From an uncultured Gemmatimonadota bacterium (GTDB lineage Bacteria; Gemmatimonadota; Gemmatimonadetes; Palauibacterales; Palauibacteraceae), in contig CAZJJO010000001.1 in assembly GCA_964546375.1 (NCBI GenBank), positions 5,614 through 59,934 of the forward strand: a stretch of 54,321 nt of DNA, written 5' to 3'. Below are positions 1,660 to 42,602 of this stretch, piece by piece. Position 1 is the stretch's first letter. The number at the start of each line of letters is the position of its first letter. Position numbers and translations under genes: made by a program. The notes beneath the pieces were generated by a model. That model ran no database searches. It was not told the origin of the DNA and worked only from the letters and a program-made list of their open reading frames with translations.

Positions 1660-2766
1660 TCACCGGTCCCCCCGTCCGGCCGGGCCCGGTCCGCGCGGAC
1701 CGGGGGCCAGGCCGGCCCGCCGCAGGTGCTCCACGGCCTGCTCCACCGCCGCCTCCGGCCCGCGGTCGCAGCGCACCGGGCGAGCCGCCCGGCGGACCTC
1801 GTCGGAGGGCTCCTCCCGGCGCCGGGCCTCGCGCCGCTCCCCGGCCGGGAGGTCCGCCTGGCGGGCCGAGATCCCCCTGACCTTGGCCCGCACCGCCGCC
1901 CGGTAGGAGACGTAGAGGTCCAGCAGGCGGCGCCCGTCCGGGTCGTCGGAGGCGGCGAAGTAGGCGTCGGCGAAGCGCCGCGCAAGGTCGCGCCGACCGC
2001 GGACCGTCAGGTCCATGACCGGGAACGCGGCGTCCGCCACGGGATCGGCGTAGCGGAACCGGTCGTTGAACTCGATGCAGTCGACGATCACCACGTCCCC
2101 CGGCGGCTCCCGGTCCGGGAAGAGGTAGACGTGCTCCAGCAGCAGGTCGCCGTGGGTGTCGCGCGGCGCGCCGCCCTCGGCCCGCTCCTCGATCAGGCCA
2201 CGCCGCCGGCGCAGCTCCCGCTCGGTGAGCTCACGGGTCCGGTCGTGGACGGCCGCGGTGACGACGTCCCCGACGTGGCCGACGGTCTGCTCGAAGTTCT
2301 CGCGTGCGTTGCCGGCCACGACCTCCCAGCGGCCGTACCGGGCGATCTCGGGGCCGGAGGCGGCCTCCCGGTGGAAGCGGGCCACCCGTCGGGCCACCCG
2401 CTCCAGCGACTCCCGGTCCAGCTCGCCCCGCTCCAGCCGGGCGGCGGCGGTGGCGCCGGGGGGCAGGCGCCGCATCCGGACGGCGTGCTCCAGGACCTCG
2501 CCCTCGCCTCCGAAGCGCGGTCCCTCCGGTCCCCGAGTGACCGGGACGACGCCCAGGTAGACGTCCGGCGCGAGGCGACGGTTGAGGCGCACCTCGTCCT
2601 CGCAGGCGCGGCGCCGCTTCTCCGGGGTCGAGAAGTCGAGGAAGCCGAGGTCGAGCGGCTTCCTCAGCTTGTAGGCGTAGTCGCCGGCCAGCAGGACGAC
2701 CGAGATGTGGGTGCGGTGCACCCGGAGGTCCTCGGCCGGGTGGGGATAGGCCTCCGGCCGCTTCAG
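1660..2766 (-). CDS. APH/choline-kinase-like phosphotransferase domain protein (COG2187 N-domain type)
   Basis: This is the C-terminal part of the artefactual 1150-aa ORF 1660..5112. LKRPEAYPHPAEDLRVHRTHISVVLLAGDYAYKLRKPLDLGFLDFSTPEKRRRACEDEVRLNRRLAPDVYLGVVPV plus HGDLLLEHV (Brenner-type motif) match this family. The start is uncertain: CTG at 2766 overlaps the upstream stop (CTGA), and the alternative GTG is at 2721. Confidence 0.75.
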   Translation of the reverse strand: MKRPEAYPHPAEDLRVHRTHISVVLLAGDYAYKLRKPLDLGFLDFSTPEKRRRACEDEVRLNRRLAPDVYLGVVPVTRGPEGPRFGGEGEVLEHAVRMRRLPPGATAAARLERGELDRESLERVARRVARFHREAASGPEIARYGRWEVVAGNARENFEQTVGHVGDVVTAAVHDRTRELTERELRRRRGLIEERAEGGAPRDTHGDLLLEHVYLFPDREPPGDVVIVDCIEFNDRFRYADPVADAAFPVMDLTVRGRRDLARRFADAYFAASDDPDGRRLLDLYVSYRAAVRAKVRGISARQADLPAGERREARRREEPSDEVRRAARPVRCDRGPEAAVEQAVEHLRRAGLAPGPRGPGPAGRGDR

Positions 2767-3242
2767 GCAGCCGCGGGCGCGGCCCGTACGGCGGCGCGGA
2801 CCTCCTCGTAGTCGGGCTCGACGTCGGGGTCGTCGGTGACCCAGCGGTAGGCGACCCGCCCGTCGGCCCCGACCACGAAGACGGAGCGCCTGGCGACGCC
2901 CTCCAGCCCCATCAGGTCGTCGTGGAGGACGCCCCACTCGTCGGCCACCTCGCGGTTGAAGTCCGAGAGCAGGGGGAAGGGCAGGTCCTCCTCCTCCCGG
3001 AAGCGGGCGTTCACGAACGGGCTGTCCACGCTGATGCCGAAGACCCGGGCGTCCAGCTCGTCGAGCCGGTCCCAGCGCCGGGCGAAGGCGCAGAGCTCGT
3101 CGGTGCAGACGGGGCTGAAGGCCAGGGGGAAGAAGGCCAGCACCACCCGCTCGCGGCCGAACAGCTCGCCGACGTCGATCTCCTCCTCGGGCCCGGCCGG
3201 GAGGGTGAAGCCCGGGGCCCGGTCGCCTTCCCGAACGGACAT
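2763..3242 (-). CDS. AhpE-like peroxiredoxin (AhpC/TSA family)
   Basis: MSVREGDRAPGFTLP...VVLAFFPLAFSPVCTDELC...FPLLSDF... ATG at 3242..3240 is preceded by GGAGGAGG. The track ORF 2763..3308 is trimmed to this internal Met. Confidence 0.9.
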   Translation of the reverse strand: MSVREGDRAPGFTLPAGPEEEIDVGELFGRERVVLAFFPLAFSPVCTDELCAFARRWDRLDELDARVFGISVDSPFVNARFREEEDLPFPLLSDFNREVADEWGVLHDDLMGLEGVARRSVFVVGADGRVAYRWVTDDPDVEPDYEEVRAAVRAAPAAA

Positions 3243-20134: not shown

Positions 20135-20563
20135 GTGAGCGACGACGGATCCGCACGCTGCCGGGCCGCGATCCCGGCCTGGCGCCGGCTCGCCGCGGCG
20201 GCGCTGGTGCTGGCCCTGACGGGCTGCGGCCTCTTCAGCCGCCAGCCCGAGGAGCCCTCGCCCGGGGCGACCGACGGCCCGCAGATCACCGTCCAGGTGA
20301 GGAACCTGGCGTGGAAGAACGTCCACGTGTACGTGATCGCCGGCGCGAACTGGCGGTCGATGGGCGTGCTCAGCAGCCAGGGGGAGGAGACCTACCGGCT
20401 TCCCCGCGACCTGATGGGCGCCCGGCAGGAGATCCGGCTGGCCGCCGACCCGGTGGGCTCCCGCCACGCCTTCATCTCGGATCCGGTGCAGGTGGAGCCG
20501 GGGGACCGGGTGACGTGGACGATCCAGGACAACCTGGCCCTTTCGAGCGTCTTCGTCGAGTAG
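20135..20563 (+). CDS. hypothetical lipoprotein
   Basis: GTG at 20135 is preceded by GAGGAGG. The lipobox is LVLALTGC. No family recognised. Confidence 0.65.
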   Translation: MSDDGSARCRAAIPAWRRLAAAALVLALTGCGLFSRQPEEPSPGATDGPQITVQVRNLAWKNVHVYVIAGANWRSMGVLSSQGEETYRLPRDLMGARQEIRLAADPVGSRHAFISDPVQVEPGDRVTWTIQDNLALSSVFVE

Positions 20564-20585
20564 CGCACCCGACCGGGAGGCGAGC

Positions 20586-21047
20586 GTGAGCGAGGAGCCG
20601 TTCTACGTGGTTCGTTCGACGGTCCGGAAGGTGGAGGGCCTCCGCCGTCGGGCCTCCCTCCCCACGGGCGAGGAGGTGGAGCTGGGCGTCCACGGCCCCG
20701 TCAAGGAGGCCTACGGCATCGAGGCCGAGGACCTGCCGCTCCCGGTGGACTACCTGGTGGCCACCACCGGCGGTTGAATGCTCGGGACCCTGAACGGCGC
20801 GCTGGAGGCGCGCGAGGTCGACCTGGGCCCCGACGACCTGGTGGCCGAGGTGGAGGGGATCAACGAGATGGACGGGAAGGTGCCCGTCCTCACCGAGATC
20901 CGGGTCCACTACACGATCCGGGTGCCGGCTGCGGACCGGGACACCGTCGAGAAGGTCCTCTCCCGGCACCAGGAGTTCTGCCCCTCGGCGCAGACCCTGG
21001 CGGGGGCGGTGGAGGTGAGCTGGACCGCCGACATCCAGGAGGTCTGA
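20586..21047 (+). CDS. OsmC/Ohr family peroxiredoxin with in-frame TGA at codon 64 (candidate selenocysteine, otherwise a disrupted gene)
   Basis: Track ORFs 20586..20777 and 20778..21047 are in one frame, separated only by TGA 20775..20777. Joined, they read ...PVDYLVATTGG[TGA]MLGTLNGALEA...RHQEFCPSAQTLAG..., the two-Cys OsmC architecture with TGA at the first Cys. The GTG start is preceded by GGGAGG, and the second half has no RBS of its own. Confidence 0.7.
20786..20819 (+). other. SECIS-like stem-loop downstream of the in-frame UGA
   Basis: GCGCGC (20797..20802) pairs with GCGCGC (20808..20813) around the loop UGGAG. A lower stem pairs GACC (20786..20789) with GGUC (20816..20819). The apical loop begins 28 nt after the U of UGA. 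Confidence 0.4.
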
Positions 21048-21082
21048 GCGCCGGTGGCAGCCCCCCCGGGACGCGGGGGCGG

Positions 21083-21601
21083 TCAGCCGCCCGCGGCCAC
21101 CTCCATCAGCTCCACCCGGAAGAGCAGGGTGGCGTTCGGGGGGATGGGGCCGCCGCCGCTGCTGCCGTAGGCCAGCTCCGGGGGGATCCGGAGGATCCGC
21201 TCGCCGCCGACCTGCATCCCCTCCAGGCCCTCGTCCCAGCCCTCGATGACCCGGCCGGTCCCGAGGACGAACCGGATCGGCTGGCCGCGGTCGCGGCTCG
21301 AGTCGAACTTCGTCCCGTCGGTGAGGCAGCCGGTGTAGTGGACGGCGACCGTGTCGCCGGCCCCGGCGGTCCGGCCCTGGCCGTCGGCGAGCTGCAGGTA
21401 GCGGAGGCCGCTGTCCGTGGCGGTCATCGAGTCCGACGGCACCGAGGTCAGGGCCTCGCAGGCGTTGTCGGCGGCGGCCGCGTCGGAGGACGCGGCGGCT
21501 ACCGCGTCGCCGTCGGCGGCGGTGTCGGCGTCTCCCCCGCCGCAGGCGACGAGCAGCAGCAGGGCGGCGAGAAGCGGGGCGGCGGGTGCGTGGCGTCGCA
21601 T
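21083..21601 (-). CDS. FKBP-type peptidyl-prolyl isomerase lipoprotein
   Basis: Lipobox LLLVAC, then VAVHYTGCLTDGTKFDSSRDRGQPIRFVLGTGRVIEGWDEGLEGMQVGGERILRIPPELAYG. Confidence 0.92.
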   Translation of the reverse strand: MRRHAPAAPLLAALLLLVACGGGDADTAADGDAVAAASSDAAAADNACEALTSVPSDSMTATDSGLRYLQLADGQGRTAGAGDTVAVHYTGCLTDGTKFDSSRDRGQPIRFVLGTGRVIEGWDEGLEGMQVGGERILRIPPELAYGSSGGGPIPPNATLLFRVELMEVAAGG

Positions 21602-30518: not shown

Positions 30519-30676
30519 GGGTGCGAGAAGAGGAGGCGAGCGTGGAGATCGACACGATCATGGTCCCGCTGGACGGATCGGACTCCTCCCGCCGGGCGCT
30601 CCCGGCGGCGCGGGAGGTGGCCGGGCGTGAGCGCGAGCGGCCGGTCCTGCTGGCCCGTCCGTCGGAAGACGACTGA
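30515..30676 (+). pseudogene. short ORF resembling only the N-terminal ~40 aa of a universal stress protein domain (probable remnant)
   Basis: ...VEIDTIMVPLDGSDSSRRALPAAREVAGRERERPVLL... then a stop. AGGAGG lies 5 nt before the internal GTG at 30542. It is in frame with, and abuts, the DagK start. Confidence 0.3.
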
Positions 30677-31606
30677 GTGAACGAGGCGACGGAGGCGCCG
30701 GCCGGCTCGGCCGGACGCGTGCGGGTGGTGCTCAACCCGGTCGCGGGGCGGACGCCCCGTTATCCCTGCGTCGTCGACGACCTCGCCGACCTCCCGCGGG
30801 CCGCGCTGGTCCGCACCCGGGCCCCGGGCCACGCCGCCGAGCTGGCCCGGGAGGCGGCCCGCGACGGCTGCTCGACCGTGGTGGCCGGGGGCGGCGACGG
30901 GACGGTGCACGAGGTCGTGGGCGGCCTGGCCGCCGGGGACGCGGTCGACCGGGTCCGGCTGGGGCTGGTCCCGCTGGGCACCGGCAACGACCTGGCCCGG
31001 AGCCTGGGCGTGCCCGACGAGCCGCACGAGGCCCTCTCCCTCCTCCGGCGGAACCCGTCGGCGCGCATGGACCTGGTCGACGCGACGGCCGGCGGCCGCG
31101 AGGTCACGGCGGTCAACTTCGCGCTGGGGGGCTTCGCCGGCGACATCGACCGCCACGTGACCCGGGACCGGCGCCGGCTCTGGGGCGGGCTGGTCTATCT
31201 CCGGGCGGCGGCGGCCGGCCTGGCCGACCTGCGGACCTACCGCGCCCGGCTGGTCCTGGACGGCGAGCGCCTGCCGGAGCTGTCGCTGCTGGCCCTGATC
31301 GTGGCCAACGGGCGCGAGCTGGGCCACGGCATCCCGGTGGCGCCGGAGGCCCGCCTCGACGACGGTCGCCTGGACGTGGTGGCGGTGCTGGCGGACCCGC
31401 CGGCCCGGATCCCCCTGACCGTGGCCCGTCTTCTGGCCGGCCGGCACCTGGACGCGCCCGGCGTGCTGTGGCGGCGGGCGCGGCGGATCGAGGTGCGCTC
31501 GGATCCCCCGATGCCCTTCAACGCCGACGGACAGCCCCTGGGCACCGGTCCGGCGACCTTCGAGGTGCGGCCGCAGGCCCTGCGCGTGGTGGCGCCGGGC
31601 GGCTGA
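30677..31606 (+). CDS. diacylglycerol/lipid kinase family protein (YegS/BmrU type)
   Basis: RVRVVLNPVAGR..., VVAGGGDGTVHEVVGGL and LGLVPLGTGNDLARSLG. GTG at 30677. Confidence 0.9.
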   Translation: MNEATEAPAGSAGRVRVVLNPVAGRTPRYPCVVDDLADLPRAALVRTRAPGHAAELAREAARDGCSTVVAGGGDGTVHEVVGGLAAGDAVDRVRLGLVPLGTGNDLARSLGVPDEPHEALSLLRRNPSARMDLVDATAGGREVTAVNFALGGFAGDIDRHVTRDRRRLWGGLVYLRAAAAGLADLRTYRARLVLDGERLPELSLLALIVANGRELGHGIPVAPEARLDDGRLDVVAVLADPPARIPLTVARLLAGRHLDAPGVLWRRARRIEVRSDPPMPFNADGQPLGTGPATFEVRPQALRVVAPGG

Positions 31607-40237: not shown

Positions 40238-41560
40238 ATGAGCGTGGGCGAGGCGACGGAGGCCGGCGTCGGGACGGAGCGCCTGAAGGCCTGGGTGGTG
40301 GAGGCCCGCCGCCGGAGCCTGGAGCTGGTGGCCGACCTGGACGACGACCAGCTCGTGGGGCCTCACCTGGACGTGATCAACCCGCTGCTCTGGGAGATCG
40401 GGCACGCGGCCTGGTTCCAGGAGCGATGGGTCCTGCGGCAGGGGATCGGTGCGTCGCCGATCCGCTCCGACGCCGACGACCTCTGGGACTCCATCGCCAT
40501 CCCCCACGACGACCGCTGGGAGCTGCCGCTGCCGGAGCGCGACGAGACGGTGGCCTACATGACGGACGTCCGCGACCGGGTGGTGGAGGCGCTGGAGCGC
40601 CGGCCGGAGGACGAGCGCCTGCGGTACCTGGCCCGGTACTCCGTCCACCACGAGGACATGCACGCCGAGGCCTACACCTATGCCCGACAGACGCTGGCCT
40701 ACCCCCGCCCCCCGATCTCCGAGGTCCCGTCCCGGCCGGAGGAGGGCGGCCCCCTGCCGGGCGACGTGGAGGTCCCGGGCGGGACCTACCGGCTCGGCGT
40801 CGAGCCGGACGGAGGCTTCGCGTTCGACAACGAGAAGTGGGCGCACGAGGTCGAGCTGGAGCCGTTCCGCATCGGCCGCGCCCCGGTCACGGCGGGAGAG
40901 TTCGCCGAGTTCGTCGAGGACGGCGGCTATCGCCGGCAAGAGCTGTGGAGCGAGGCCGGCTGGCGATGGCGCCGGGAGGCCGGGGCGGAGCGGCCGGCCT
41001 ACTGGCGGCGCGACGGGGAGGGCGGCTGGGAGGTCCGGAGGTTCCGGCGCTGGGAGCCGCTGGCGCCCCACCGGCCGATGATCCACGCGAACTGGCACGA
41101 GGCCCGGGCCTGGTGCCGGTGGGCCGGGCGCCGGCTGCCGACCGAGGCCGAGTGGGAGGCGGCGGCCGCGGCCGTCCCGGACGGCGGCGGGGGACTCGCC
41201 GGGGGGCGGCGCACCTATCCCTGGGGCGAGGAGGCGCCGTCCCCGGAGCGGCTGAACGCCGACTGGCGGGCCATGGGCACGGTGGACGTCGGCGCCCTGC
41301 CGGCGGGCGACAGCGCCTTCGGCTGCCGGCAGATGCTCGGCAACGTCTGGGAGTGGACCGTCGACGCGTTCGAGCCCTATCCCGGCTTCGAGCCCGACAT
41401 GTACCGGGAGTACTCCCGGCCCTGGTTCGGCGACCACCGGGTCCTGCGGGGCGGAGGGTGGCCGGCGCGCTCGCGCCTGCTTCGGAACACGGTCCGGAGC
41501 TTCTACACGCCCGACCGCCGCGACGTGTGGGCGGGCTTCCGCACCTGCGAGGCGACGTGA
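40238..41560 (+). CDS. senA: EgtB/SenA family sulfoxide/selenoxide synthase (DinB-like + FGE-sulfatase domains), likely selenoneine synthase by context
   Basis: The DinB-like N-domain carries the His triad candidates (WEIGHAAWF, SVHHEDMHAE). The FGE-type C-domain has ...NVWEWT...RVLRGGGW. It lies directly upstream of a SenB-type glycosyltransferase. Confidence 0.7.
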   Translation: MSVGEATEAGVGTERLKAWVVEARRRSLELVADLDDDQLVGPHLDVINPLLWEIGHAAWFQERWVLRQGIGASPIRSDADDLWDSIAIPHDDRWELPLPERDETVAYMTDVRDRVVEALERRPEDERLRYLARYSVHHEDMHAEAYTYARQTLAYPRPPISEVPSRPEEGGPLPGDVEVPGGTYRLGVEPDGGFAFDNEKWAHEVELEPFRIGRAPVTAGEFAEFVEDGGYRRQELWSEAGWRWRREAGAERPAYWRRDGEGGWEVRRFRRWEPLAPHRPMIHANWHEARAWCRWAGRRLPTEAEWEAAAAAVPDGGGGLAGGRRTYPWGEEAPSPERLNADWRAMGTVDVGALPAGDSAFGCRQMLGNVWEWTVDAFEPYPGFEPDMYREYSRPWFGDHRVLRGGGWPARSRLLRNTVRSFYTPDRRDVWAGFRTCEAT

Positions 41561-41600
41561 CGCCGGCGTCGGGCCGGCCGGCCGGAAGGGGAGGGACGGC

Positions 41601-42602
41601 GTGAGGGTCCTCCTGGTCAGCCCGAAGGACCCGGACGCCCGGTCCGGCAACGCCGTGACCGTCCGCCGCTGGGCCGGCCACCTCCGCGCCCTCGGCCACG
41701 GCACGGAGATCGTCCGGGGATGGGAGCCCGGGTCCGGGGAGGAGGCCGACCTGATGGTGGCGCTGCACGCCCGGCGCAGCGCCGACGCGGCGCTGGCCTG
41801 GCGACGGGAGCGCCCGGCGAGCCCGCTGGTGGTCGCGCTCACCGGCACCGACCTGTACCGGGACCTGGACGAGCACGAGGAGGCCCGGCGCGCCGTACGG
41901 GCCGCCGACCGCCTGGTGGCGCTCCAGGAGCGGGCCCCGGCCCGGCTCCCGCCGGAGCTGCGGGACCGCCTGCGGGTGATCCACCAGTCGGCCGAGCCCC
42001 CGGAGGATCCGCCTCCGCCCCTGGCGGACGTCTTCGAGGCCGCGCTGCTCTGCCACATGCGGCCGGTCAAGGACCCTTTCCGGGCCGCCGAGGCCGTCCG
42101 CCTGCTGCCCGAGGACTCGTCGATCCGGGTGACCCACGCCGGCCGCGCCCTCGGCGACGAGGCCCGCCGCCGGGCGGAGCGGGAGGACGCGTCGAACCCG
42201 CGCTACCGGTGGCTGGGCGAGCTGGACCGGGACGACGCCCTGCGCCTGCTGGCCCGGGCCCGGCTGCTGGTAGTGAGCTCGCGGCTGGAGGGCGGGGCCA
42301 ACGTGGTCACCGAGGCCCTGGCCTGCGGGACCCCGGTGCTGGCGTCCCGCATCGACGGCAGCGTGGGGCTGCTGGGGCCGACCTACCCCGGCTACTTCCC
42401 GGTGGGCGACACCGGGGCGCTGGCGCGGCTGCTCCGGCGGGCGGAGACCGACGGGGCGTTCCTGGAGCGGCTGGCCGAAGCCTGCCGCGGCCGGGCGGAG
42501 CTGGCCGACTCGGCCCGGGAGCGCGGGGCGTGGGCCGACCTGATGGAGGAGCTGGATCCGGCGGCCGAACCGCCCGGGATCGGGCCCGGCGGATCGGGGT
42601 GA
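41601..42602 (+). CDS. senB: TIGR04348/SenB-type glycosyltransferase (selenosugar synthase-like)
   Basis: MRVLLVSP...RSGNAVTVRRWAGHLRALGH...LMVALHARRSA...VVALTGTDLY...RVIHQSA...SSRLEGGANVVTEALACGTPVLASRIDGSVGLLGPTYPGYFPVGD matches my recollection of the family hallmarks. GTG at 41601 is preceded by GGGAGGGA. Confidence 0.65.
   Translation: MRVLLVSPKDPDARSGNAVTVRRWAGHLRALGHGTEIVRGWEPGSGEEADLMVALHARRSADAALAWRRERPASPLVVALTGTDLYRDLDEHEEARRAVRAADRLVALQERAPARLPPELRDRLRVIHQSAEPPEDPPPPLADVFEAALLCHMRPVKDPFRAAEAVRLLPEDSSIRVTHAGRALGDEARRRAEREDASNPRYRWLGELDRDDALRLLARARLLVVSSRLEGGANVVTEALACGTPVLASRIDGSVGLLGPTYPGYFPVGDTGALARLLRRAETDGAFLERLAEACRGRAELADSARERGAWADLMEELDPAAEPPGIGPGGSG

Follow-up and report, generated by a model that had tools for sequence, protein, structure and literature searches.

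The window analysed here, a stretch of DNA of 54,321 nt with 75% G+C, carries two abutting open reading frames on its forward strand (20586..20777 and 20778..21047), which an initial annotation had read as one gene split only by a single in-frame TGA. Reading the sequence bears this out: the two ORFs have a common frame, TGA 20775..20777 is their sole interruption, and the joined ORF holds no other stop or frameshift. This single recoded coding sequence (20586..21047) starts at GTG 20586, 5 nt downstream of a Shine-Dalgarno motif seen in the sequence (GGGAGG, 20575..20580, same strand), and comprises 63 + 1 + 89 = 153 codons followed by the true stop, a TGA at 21045..21047. The interrupting UGA is codon 64, at the peroxidatic (Cp) position, and is the proposed selenocysteine (Sec) codon; the peptide across it would read VDYLVATTGG-U-MLGTLNGALEAR. 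Further downstream, a TGC codon at 20979..20981 encodes Cys132, the resolving (Cr) cysteine, in the motif HQEFCPSAQTL. Both halves bear a coding signature, with a GC3 of 0.85 in the N-terminal half and 0.99 in the C-terminal half. The downstream ORF opens with ATG 20778 directly after the TGA, and no purine-rich Shine-Dalgarno-like motif precedes this ATG in the sequence, in keeping with the earlier observation that this half lacks a ribosome-binding site of its own. We regard the apparent pair of small genes as most likely one gene for a 153-residue, peroxide-detoxifying enzyme of the OsmC type, of ~16.6 kDa.

The family assignment was made with sequence profiles and structural comparison. 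With Cys put at the TGA position, residues 50-146 match the Pfam OsmC profile PF02566 with 53.5 bits (cutoff 27.5 bits; E = 3.3e-14). The match extends across the TGA, in line with the 153-aa OsmC/Ohr-fold protein proposed for the joined product. The best sequence match among solved structures is the Thermus thermophilus OsmC protein 1ukk, and its active-site Cys is aligned to the TGA (AAHAGCFSMAL versus ATTGG[U]MLGTL). The same column holds a Cys in four full-length close homologs (P0001, P0003, P0006 and P0007) and in 52 of 64 distant full-length relatives, among which C-x-x-G-T is a common motif. The initial claim that the TGA falls at the first conserved, peroxidatic Cys was thus correct, and the check proposed with it, for a Cys aligned to codon 64 in Cys-containing orthologs, supports it. 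Correct, too, was the claim that the second conserved Cys is intact: Cys132 is invariant in alignments A1, A2 and A5, and its column keeps a Cys in 52 of the 64 distant full-length relatives. Both redox positions of the OsmC/Ohr superfamily are thereby filled, the Cp column by the predicted Sec64 and the Cr column by Cys132. An AlphaFold model of P0001, a Cys homolog with 60% identity (pLDDT 84.3, pTM 0.81), was compared with the PDB, and all 50 matches listed were OsmC/Ohr-superfamily entries with a probability of 1.00; by way of this modelled homolog, the window protein is assigned an OsmC/Ohr fold. In the model the Cp residue is located in the N-terminal third of a long central helix, and the Cys132 position lies beside a short C-terminal helix. 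Arg21, Asp55 and Tyr56 are invariant and are candidates for the remaining active-site residues.

The narrower curated models do not capture the protein. It scores 28.7 bits against NF041052 (OsmC-related (seleno)protein; cutoff 95 bits), 16.5 bits against TIGR03562 (OsmC sensu stricto; cutoff 85.8 bits) and 18 bits against TIGR03561 (Ohr; cutoff 88.85 bits); against NF041052, the Cys form P0006 reaches 28.6 bits and ten wider relatives score at most 23. The redox motif of the window protein is U-M-L-G-T, with Thr at +4 (UxxxT), and does not match the published UxxT; family-wide it takes the form C/U-x-x-G-T. Since all three cutoffs are missed and the motif is UxxxT, we place the OsmC-like clade in a separate subfamily, one without a curated model, whose members would act in the manner of the OsmC-like selenoproteins already known.

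A protein search recovered 317 relatives, and of the 120 listed all except 6 are fragments of about 89-110 aa, confined to the C-terminal 58% of the query. At the DNA level, a scan with one genome per species found that 189 genomes encode a relative, and 80 loci were kept. In all 80 the tblastn matches run from residues 1-7 to residues 151-153 in one frame, and in 81 of 81 loci the codon before the MLGTLNG motif is TGA, with the N-terminal half recognisably conserved upstream. The search patterns left that codon out, so there was no pattern-match bias toward TGA. The same gene is therefore present in at least 80 other bacterial species, and TGA occupies the codon in 83 of 83 sequences: the window, the 80 genomes, the strain L001 and the JGI contig L086. 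L001 is an independent assembly of a diverged strain that keeps the TGA despite many other differences. Most carriers are Gemmatimonadota, Palauibacter and Longimicrobiales among them, joined by several Acidobacteriota, a single Eisenbacteria MAG and bacterium HR33; complete or near-complete genomes with the TGA form include CP070670.1, OZ241352.1, OZ220691.1, OZ242312.1, NZ_OZ253465.1, NZ_OZ250143.1 and OY970342.1. The median dN/dS is 0.29 upstream of the TGA versus 0.32 downstream (more than 2,700 pairs each), which indicates that the upstream half is translated and constrained like the rest. A search of 1.84 billion cluster representatives returned many entries that start at residue 1 and match query residues 64-151, and many others of about 62-63 aa that match residues 1-62 and end before the Cys/Sec column.

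Several sequences depart from this pattern or seemed to do so. Two relatives, P0015 and P0162, display a Trp at the Sec column; their DNA has TGA there, and the stored proteins cannot be translated from the DNA under table 11. P0162 (locus L088) is a TGA form with 33% identity from an organism of 37% G+C, and thus Sec forms also occur in a distant branch. A double-Sec idea for P0124 was discarded on finding real GGA and GGC codons in the DNA of what is a decayed copy. L085 has a genuine GGA (Gly) at the codon with the hairpin described below intact, and L087, in which neither catalytic residue survives, seems to be a decayed copy. Genome-wide reassignment of UGA was also rejected: TGA ends 41 of 43 genes in the window, as well as the OsmC-like gene itself in 55 of 82 loci. 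As TGA is a normal stop in the window, the recoding is site-specific.

Downstream of the UGA, at 20797..20813 on the forward strand, lies a hairpin of the bacterial SECIS (bSECIS) apical type, in which a 5' arm (20797-20802, GCGCGC) and a 3' arm (20808-20813, GCGCGC) enclose the loop UGGAG (20803-20807); with the U of the UGA numbered 1, positions 23-28 pair with 34-39. We compared this element across 82 sequences, 74 of them distinct. Paired cells make up 99.3%, compared with 3-69% in controls whose 3' side was displaced by 1-3 columns, and the covariation score was reached by 0 of 500 shuffles. At pair 27-35 there are 46 A-U, 22 G-C and 5 G-U combinations, and at pair 26-36 there are 71 C-G and 2 U-A. 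As such raw counts tally sequences rather than events, the pair states were placed on a neighbour-joining tree for which the remainder of the protein was used; at least 13 independent state changes fall on pair 27-35, which is paired in 81 of the 82 sequences. The RNAalifold consensus recovers the same helix with an additional U-G/U-A closing pair. The base that sets GCG or GCA at Ala72, a synonymous choice, is matched by the second position of a codon for Ala or Val that lies three codons away, a pairing that protein coding alone does not explain. Moreover, the hairpin codons, and they alone, show almost no synonymous variation (Gly GGC in 77 of 82, Leu CTG in 77 of 82, Val GTG in 57 of 58); elsewhere in the gene three or four codons are in use for Gly, Leu and Val.

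Under the published bSECIS criteria (PMC13188914), the apical loop has 3-9 nt with a G in its first two positions (typically G then G or U), the upper stem has 4-16 bp, the loop lies 16-37 nt from the UGA, and the MFE does not exceed -7.5 kcal/mol. The window hairpin, with its UGGAG loop, 6 bp, 25 nt from the UGA and MFE of -11.2 kcal/mol, agrees with all four, as do the hairpins of 77 of the 82 sequences. The 5 exceptions have a common remodelled element, in which the 7-bp outer stem shows a compensatory change of its own and the apical loop is CGU or GUUC. A decisive natural control comes from the Cys forms L082-L084, which have TGC or TGT at the codon and in which 2-3 of the 6 hairpin pairs are broken. 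Folding of the single window sequence gives a z-score of -1.46, only marginally better than shuffles, and the case for the hairpin therefore rests on the comparison. Rfam searches in gathering and E-value modes returned no SECIS or other credible match. The initial annotation had drawn a longer stem-loop at 20786..20819; its apical 6-bp stem with the UGGAG loop stands, and its lower stem does not, as only the apical 6-7 bp are conserved among relatives. The bSECIS-compatible geometry it proposed agrees with the criteria above, its figure of 28 nt differing from our 25 nt by counting convention. The element resembles the Escherichia coli fdhF-type SECIS and the bSECIS model in being a hairpin in the coding region after the UGA, in the small size of its apical loop, where a G is followed by G or U, and in its 25-nt spacing (range 16-37), 6-7 bp upper stem and MFE below the -7.5 kcal/mol limit. 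It differs in being much shorter than the fdhF element of roughly 40 nt, in that RNAalifold detected no conserved lower stem or bulged U, and in the presence of one sub-clade with a different architecture.

Evidence for selenium use comes from elsewhere in the window, where senA (40238-41560) and senB (41601-42602), both on the forward strand, form a selenoneine biosynthesis pair spanning 40238..42602. As had been noticed earlier, both are genuine, scoring above the curated cutoffs (NF041186 SenA, 507.7 bits against 420; TIGR04348 SenB, 377 bits against 300), and SenB requires selenophosphate supplied by the SelD homolog SenC (bioRxiv 10.1101/2022.04.13.486033). The presence of senA and senB means that the organism uses selenium and needs selenophosphate; they imply a SelD-type selenophosphate synthetase elsewhere in the genome, there being no senC or selD beside them. 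Neither the 54-kb window nor the ±10 kb around the gene in 80 relatives yielded selA, selB, selC or selD, so that any sel genes of these organisms would be unlinked to the OsmC-like gene. All ORFs of the window and loci were probed with E. coli SelA, SelB and SelD. As validation, the probes for SelD and SelA recovered the solved E. coli structures from the PDB, at 774 and 1012 bits; in the window and loci only the SelB probe gave matches, and these were IF-2 (798 bits). An NCBIfam scan of all 45 window genes likewise gave no sel gene. The window has no tRNA genes, and ARAGORN found no tRNA-Sec in the window and 81 loci; two odd 96-nt calls (L007 and L029) were discarded for want of Rfam support. 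When the window and flanks were scanned for in-frame TGA codons with a coding signal on both sides, only same-frame gene junctions turned up, and no second selenoprotein gene. The neighbours of the OsmC-like gene in the window are unrelated housekeeping genes, and among the loci synteny is weak, with no universal neighbour, sel gene or obvious reductase. A TrxB-like gene is present in only 12 loci, about 2.9 kb away, and the Prx-like gene of the window (2766..3242) has no internal stop.

The absence of Sec machinery from the window and the ±10 kb flanks of the relatives, the shortness of the conserved stem and the Gly codon of L085 beside an intact hairpin are what one might cite for site-specific read-through of the UGA without Sec, in which a near-cognate or suppressor tRNA would insert Trp, Cys or Gly under stimulation by the hairpin and independently of SelA, SelB and tRNA-Sec. 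We know of no precedent in bacteria for conserved SelB-independent read-through of a UGA at a catalytic Cys. The position is the redox-active Cys of the family, a classic site of Cys/Sec exchange, the spacing, the loop (G then G or U) and the energy of the hairpin agree with the bSECIS model, and senA and senB attest to the use of selenium by the organism. Furthermore, OsmC-like proteins are an accepted predicted selenoprotein family (PMC1088965). We therefore consider read-through of this kind very unlikely, and hold it highly improbable that the catalytic position of this peroxidase receives a standard amino acid, or Sec in some other way, through a conserved recoding that depends on the hairpin but not on SelB.

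Less likely still is a split enzyme, with translation stopping at UGA 20775 and re-initiating at AUG 20778 through UGAAUG coupling, and the resulting 63-aa and 89-aa parts assembling non-covalently. An ATG does follow the TGA in 81 of the 83 Sec-form sequences, and gene callers give the halves as separate proteins. Against this, the split would delete exactly the catalytic Cp residue. The codon after the TGA is no start in the remaining two sequences, being CTA in L011 and CTG (Leu) in L086, nor in the distant L088, where it is again a CTG Leu codon. The uninterrupted Cys homologs read C-M-L-G-T, with Met following the Cys. In view of this Met, and of the Leu in L011 and L086, ATG 20778 is best seen as an ancestral residue and not as a restart. 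The lack of a Shine-Dalgarno motif before it also speaks against re-initiation, and a split enzyme would have no role for a covarying hairpin that is absent from the Cys forms. Finally, the chance of a pseudogene, or of an assembly or sequencing error for TGC or TGT, is negligible: TGA is one base away from either codon and one relative, L087, has decayed with the loss of both catalytic residues, but purifying selection acts on both halves, no other stops or frameshifts occur, and the retention of TGA in strain L001, 80 other species and contig L086 excludes a sequencing error.

We conclude, with a probability of roughly 0.9 and on the basis of sequence comparison, that the gene at 20586..21047 encodes a putative two-Cys-type peroxidase of the OsmC superfamily with a predicted selenocysteine at residue 64. 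The replacement of Cys by UGA had been taken in the initial annotation as a Cys/Sec signature, and this reading is supported by TGA in 83 of 83 sequences, by the Cys homologs and by the covarying hairpin that the Cys forms lack. During translation, the hairpin at 20797..20813 would act as a bacterial SECIS, recruiting SelB-GTP-Sec-tRNA(Sec) so that UGA 20775..20777 is read as Sec rather than as a stop; dependence on SelB and incorporation of selenium are what we would predict for this gene. By analogy with the OsmC/Ohr proteins, Sec64, positioned where the long central helix begins, may attack a hydroperoxide through its selenolate to give a selenenic acid, which Cys132 would resolve to a selenenylsulfide. 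A thiol reductant, for example a lipoyl protein or thioredoxin, could then recycle the selenenylsulfide, as in Cys-based OsmC/Ohr enzymes.

The closest known counterparts are the OsmC-like selenoproteins (COG1765/YhfA type, NF041052), and the statement in the initial annotation that such proteins had been predicted in metagenomic surveys was accurate: they were predicted in 2005 from three sequences of the Sargasso Sea metagenome, assigned to COG1765 and with the motif UxxT (Zhang, Fomenko & Gladyshev; PMC1088965), and they are also included in reviews of 2022 and 2026. That family is like ours in its PF02566 domain, the in-frame UGA at the redox Cys, the existence of Cys homologs, a SECIS-like hairpin directly downstream of the UGA, and in being a computational prediction. 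The window protein differs from it in falling short of the NF041052 cutoff (28.7 versus 95 bits) and in having UxxxT versus the family's UxxT. In the structural comparison YhfA (1ml8) is placed only at rank 21 for the P0001 model, with OsmC proper and Ohr ranking above it. Moreover, the Sargasso family came from a surface-water metagenome, whereas the window clade is found mainly in Gemmatimonadota and Acidobacteriota.

The best structural matches to the P0001 model are OsmC proteins sensu stricto (E. coli 1nye/1qwi and T. thermophilus 1ukk; probability 1.00, TM about 0.57-0.58), which agree with the window protein in both catalytic positions and are of comparable length. These are Cys-based peroxidases of organic hydroperoxides, whereas the window protein has a predicted Sec at Cp; in addition, Asp55 of the window protein is aligned with the Glu of their PEEL motif and may be its functional equivalent. 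The lipoyl-dependent Ohr proteins have the same fold and the same Cp/Cr arrangement, but the window locus has no linked lipoyl-protein or OhrR gene. The Sec-containing peroxiredoxins (Prx, PrxU; NF040737) are functional analogues in which Sec likewise takes the place of the peroxidatic Cys, on a thioredoxin fold that is unrelated to the OsmC fold.

The clade is large and has been systematically mis-annotated, and the case is a clean one of an established concept; as predictions that Sec replaces Cys in OsmC-like proteins go back to 2005, the concept itself is unchanged. Named members among the 120 listed relatives are called 'OsmC family protein', OsmC-like or 'hypothetical protein', and the databases also contain numerous free-standing N-terminal halves of about 62 aa. 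As most members are stored as fragments of about 90 aa, the catalytic residue is absent from most annotations of the subfamily, and NF041052, the curated selenoprotein model of the NCBI pipeline, misses it. Recognition of the Sec codon would correct a large number of gene models. The clade also provides a natural dataset of SECIS covariation that is unusually clean, with a remodelled sub-clade and with Cys forms without the element. We see about even odds that the clade is a selenoprotein subfamily for which no model existed before, spread across Gemmatimonadota and using two alternative SECIS architectures. No literature on Sec use in Gemmatimonadota or Palauibacterales came up in targeted searches, and the predicted protein would add a selenoprotein to phyla with barely described selenium biology. 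The co-occurrence of the predicted OsmC-like selenoprotein gene with the selenoneine genes suggests a heavy investment in selenium-based antioxidant defence.

Across the OsmC-family homologs, a few relatives carry an unusual residue at the Sec column, the alignment column of the TGA and the peroxidatic Cys. In the database proteins P0015 (L086:278) and P0162 (codon 65 of locus L088) this residue is Trp; the underlying DNA reads TGA followed by CTG, and the stored translations disagree with the standard bacterial code (table 11). Since L088 has this TGA, comes from a host with a GC content of 37% and encodes a protein of only 33% identity, Sec forms are also present in a very distant branch of this OsmC subfamily. 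Two further homologs show Gly codons. The locus L085 of a 75% GC relative (protein P0002), which is represented by one short Logan contig, has GGA in place of the Sec codon (L085:552) and a fully intact SECIS-type hairpin, including its U-A covariant; either Sec was lost to Gly very recently or the contig contains a read error. The 76% GC homolog P0124 (L087:923-1384) has the Gly codons GGA and GGC at the two catalytic positions and changes in otherwise invariant residues at many sites, and is probably a decaying or neofunctionalized copy.

The hairpin itself varies within the family. An “ALAVR” sub-clade (L033, L037, L053, L057 and L067) has a different element in place of the GCGCGC-UGGAG-GCGCGC hairpin, spanning positions +22 to +49 after the TGA and built from an outer stem of 7 bp and a small apical stem whose loop is CGU or GUUC, in an apparent remodeling of the SECIS inside a single gene family. 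At a shorter evolutionary distance, comparison with the same gene from an independent, diverged strain (L001) across window positions 20500-21100 revealed uneven synonymous divergence, with a dS of 0.336 upstream of the TGA and 0.078 downstream of it, and an identical 134-nt block covering both the TGA and the hairpin. This pattern could reflect recombination or an added constraint at the RNA level.

The window holds a second in-frame TGA (30674-30676, forward strand), flanked on either side by coding-like GC3; a YegS-type lipid kinase gene begins directly after it, with a GTG at 30677. This TGA lacks a Cys context and is probably due to a short upstream ORF or a wrongly placed start codon, not to recoding. 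Unusually long (96-nt) tRNAs called by ARAGORN in two relatives, a tRNA-Arg(tct) at L007:19043-19138 (reverse strand) and a tRNA-Leu(aag) at L029:120-215 (forward strand), are probably false positives, as Rfam at the gathering threshold detected no tRNA at either site.

The selenoneine biosynthesis genes senA and senB (window 40238-42602, forward strand) score above the curated cutoffs. The published cassette consists of three genes; no senC/selD adjoins this pair or occurs elsewhere in the 54-kb window.

In 12 of 81 loci, the OsmC gene is followed, at a distance of about 2.9 kb, by a gene for a TrxB-like pyridine-nucleotide disulfide oxidoreductase (e.g., L073:12588-13541, reverse strand, from a Palauibacter MAG), which is on the opposite strand in all but one of the 12 and weakly hints at a possible reductant system. 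The window also encodes a Bcp/PrxQ-type thiol peroxiredoxin (2766-3242, reverse strand) with no internal stop; hence, the organism possesses an ordinary, uninterrupted peroxiredoxin besides the Sec-OsmC.
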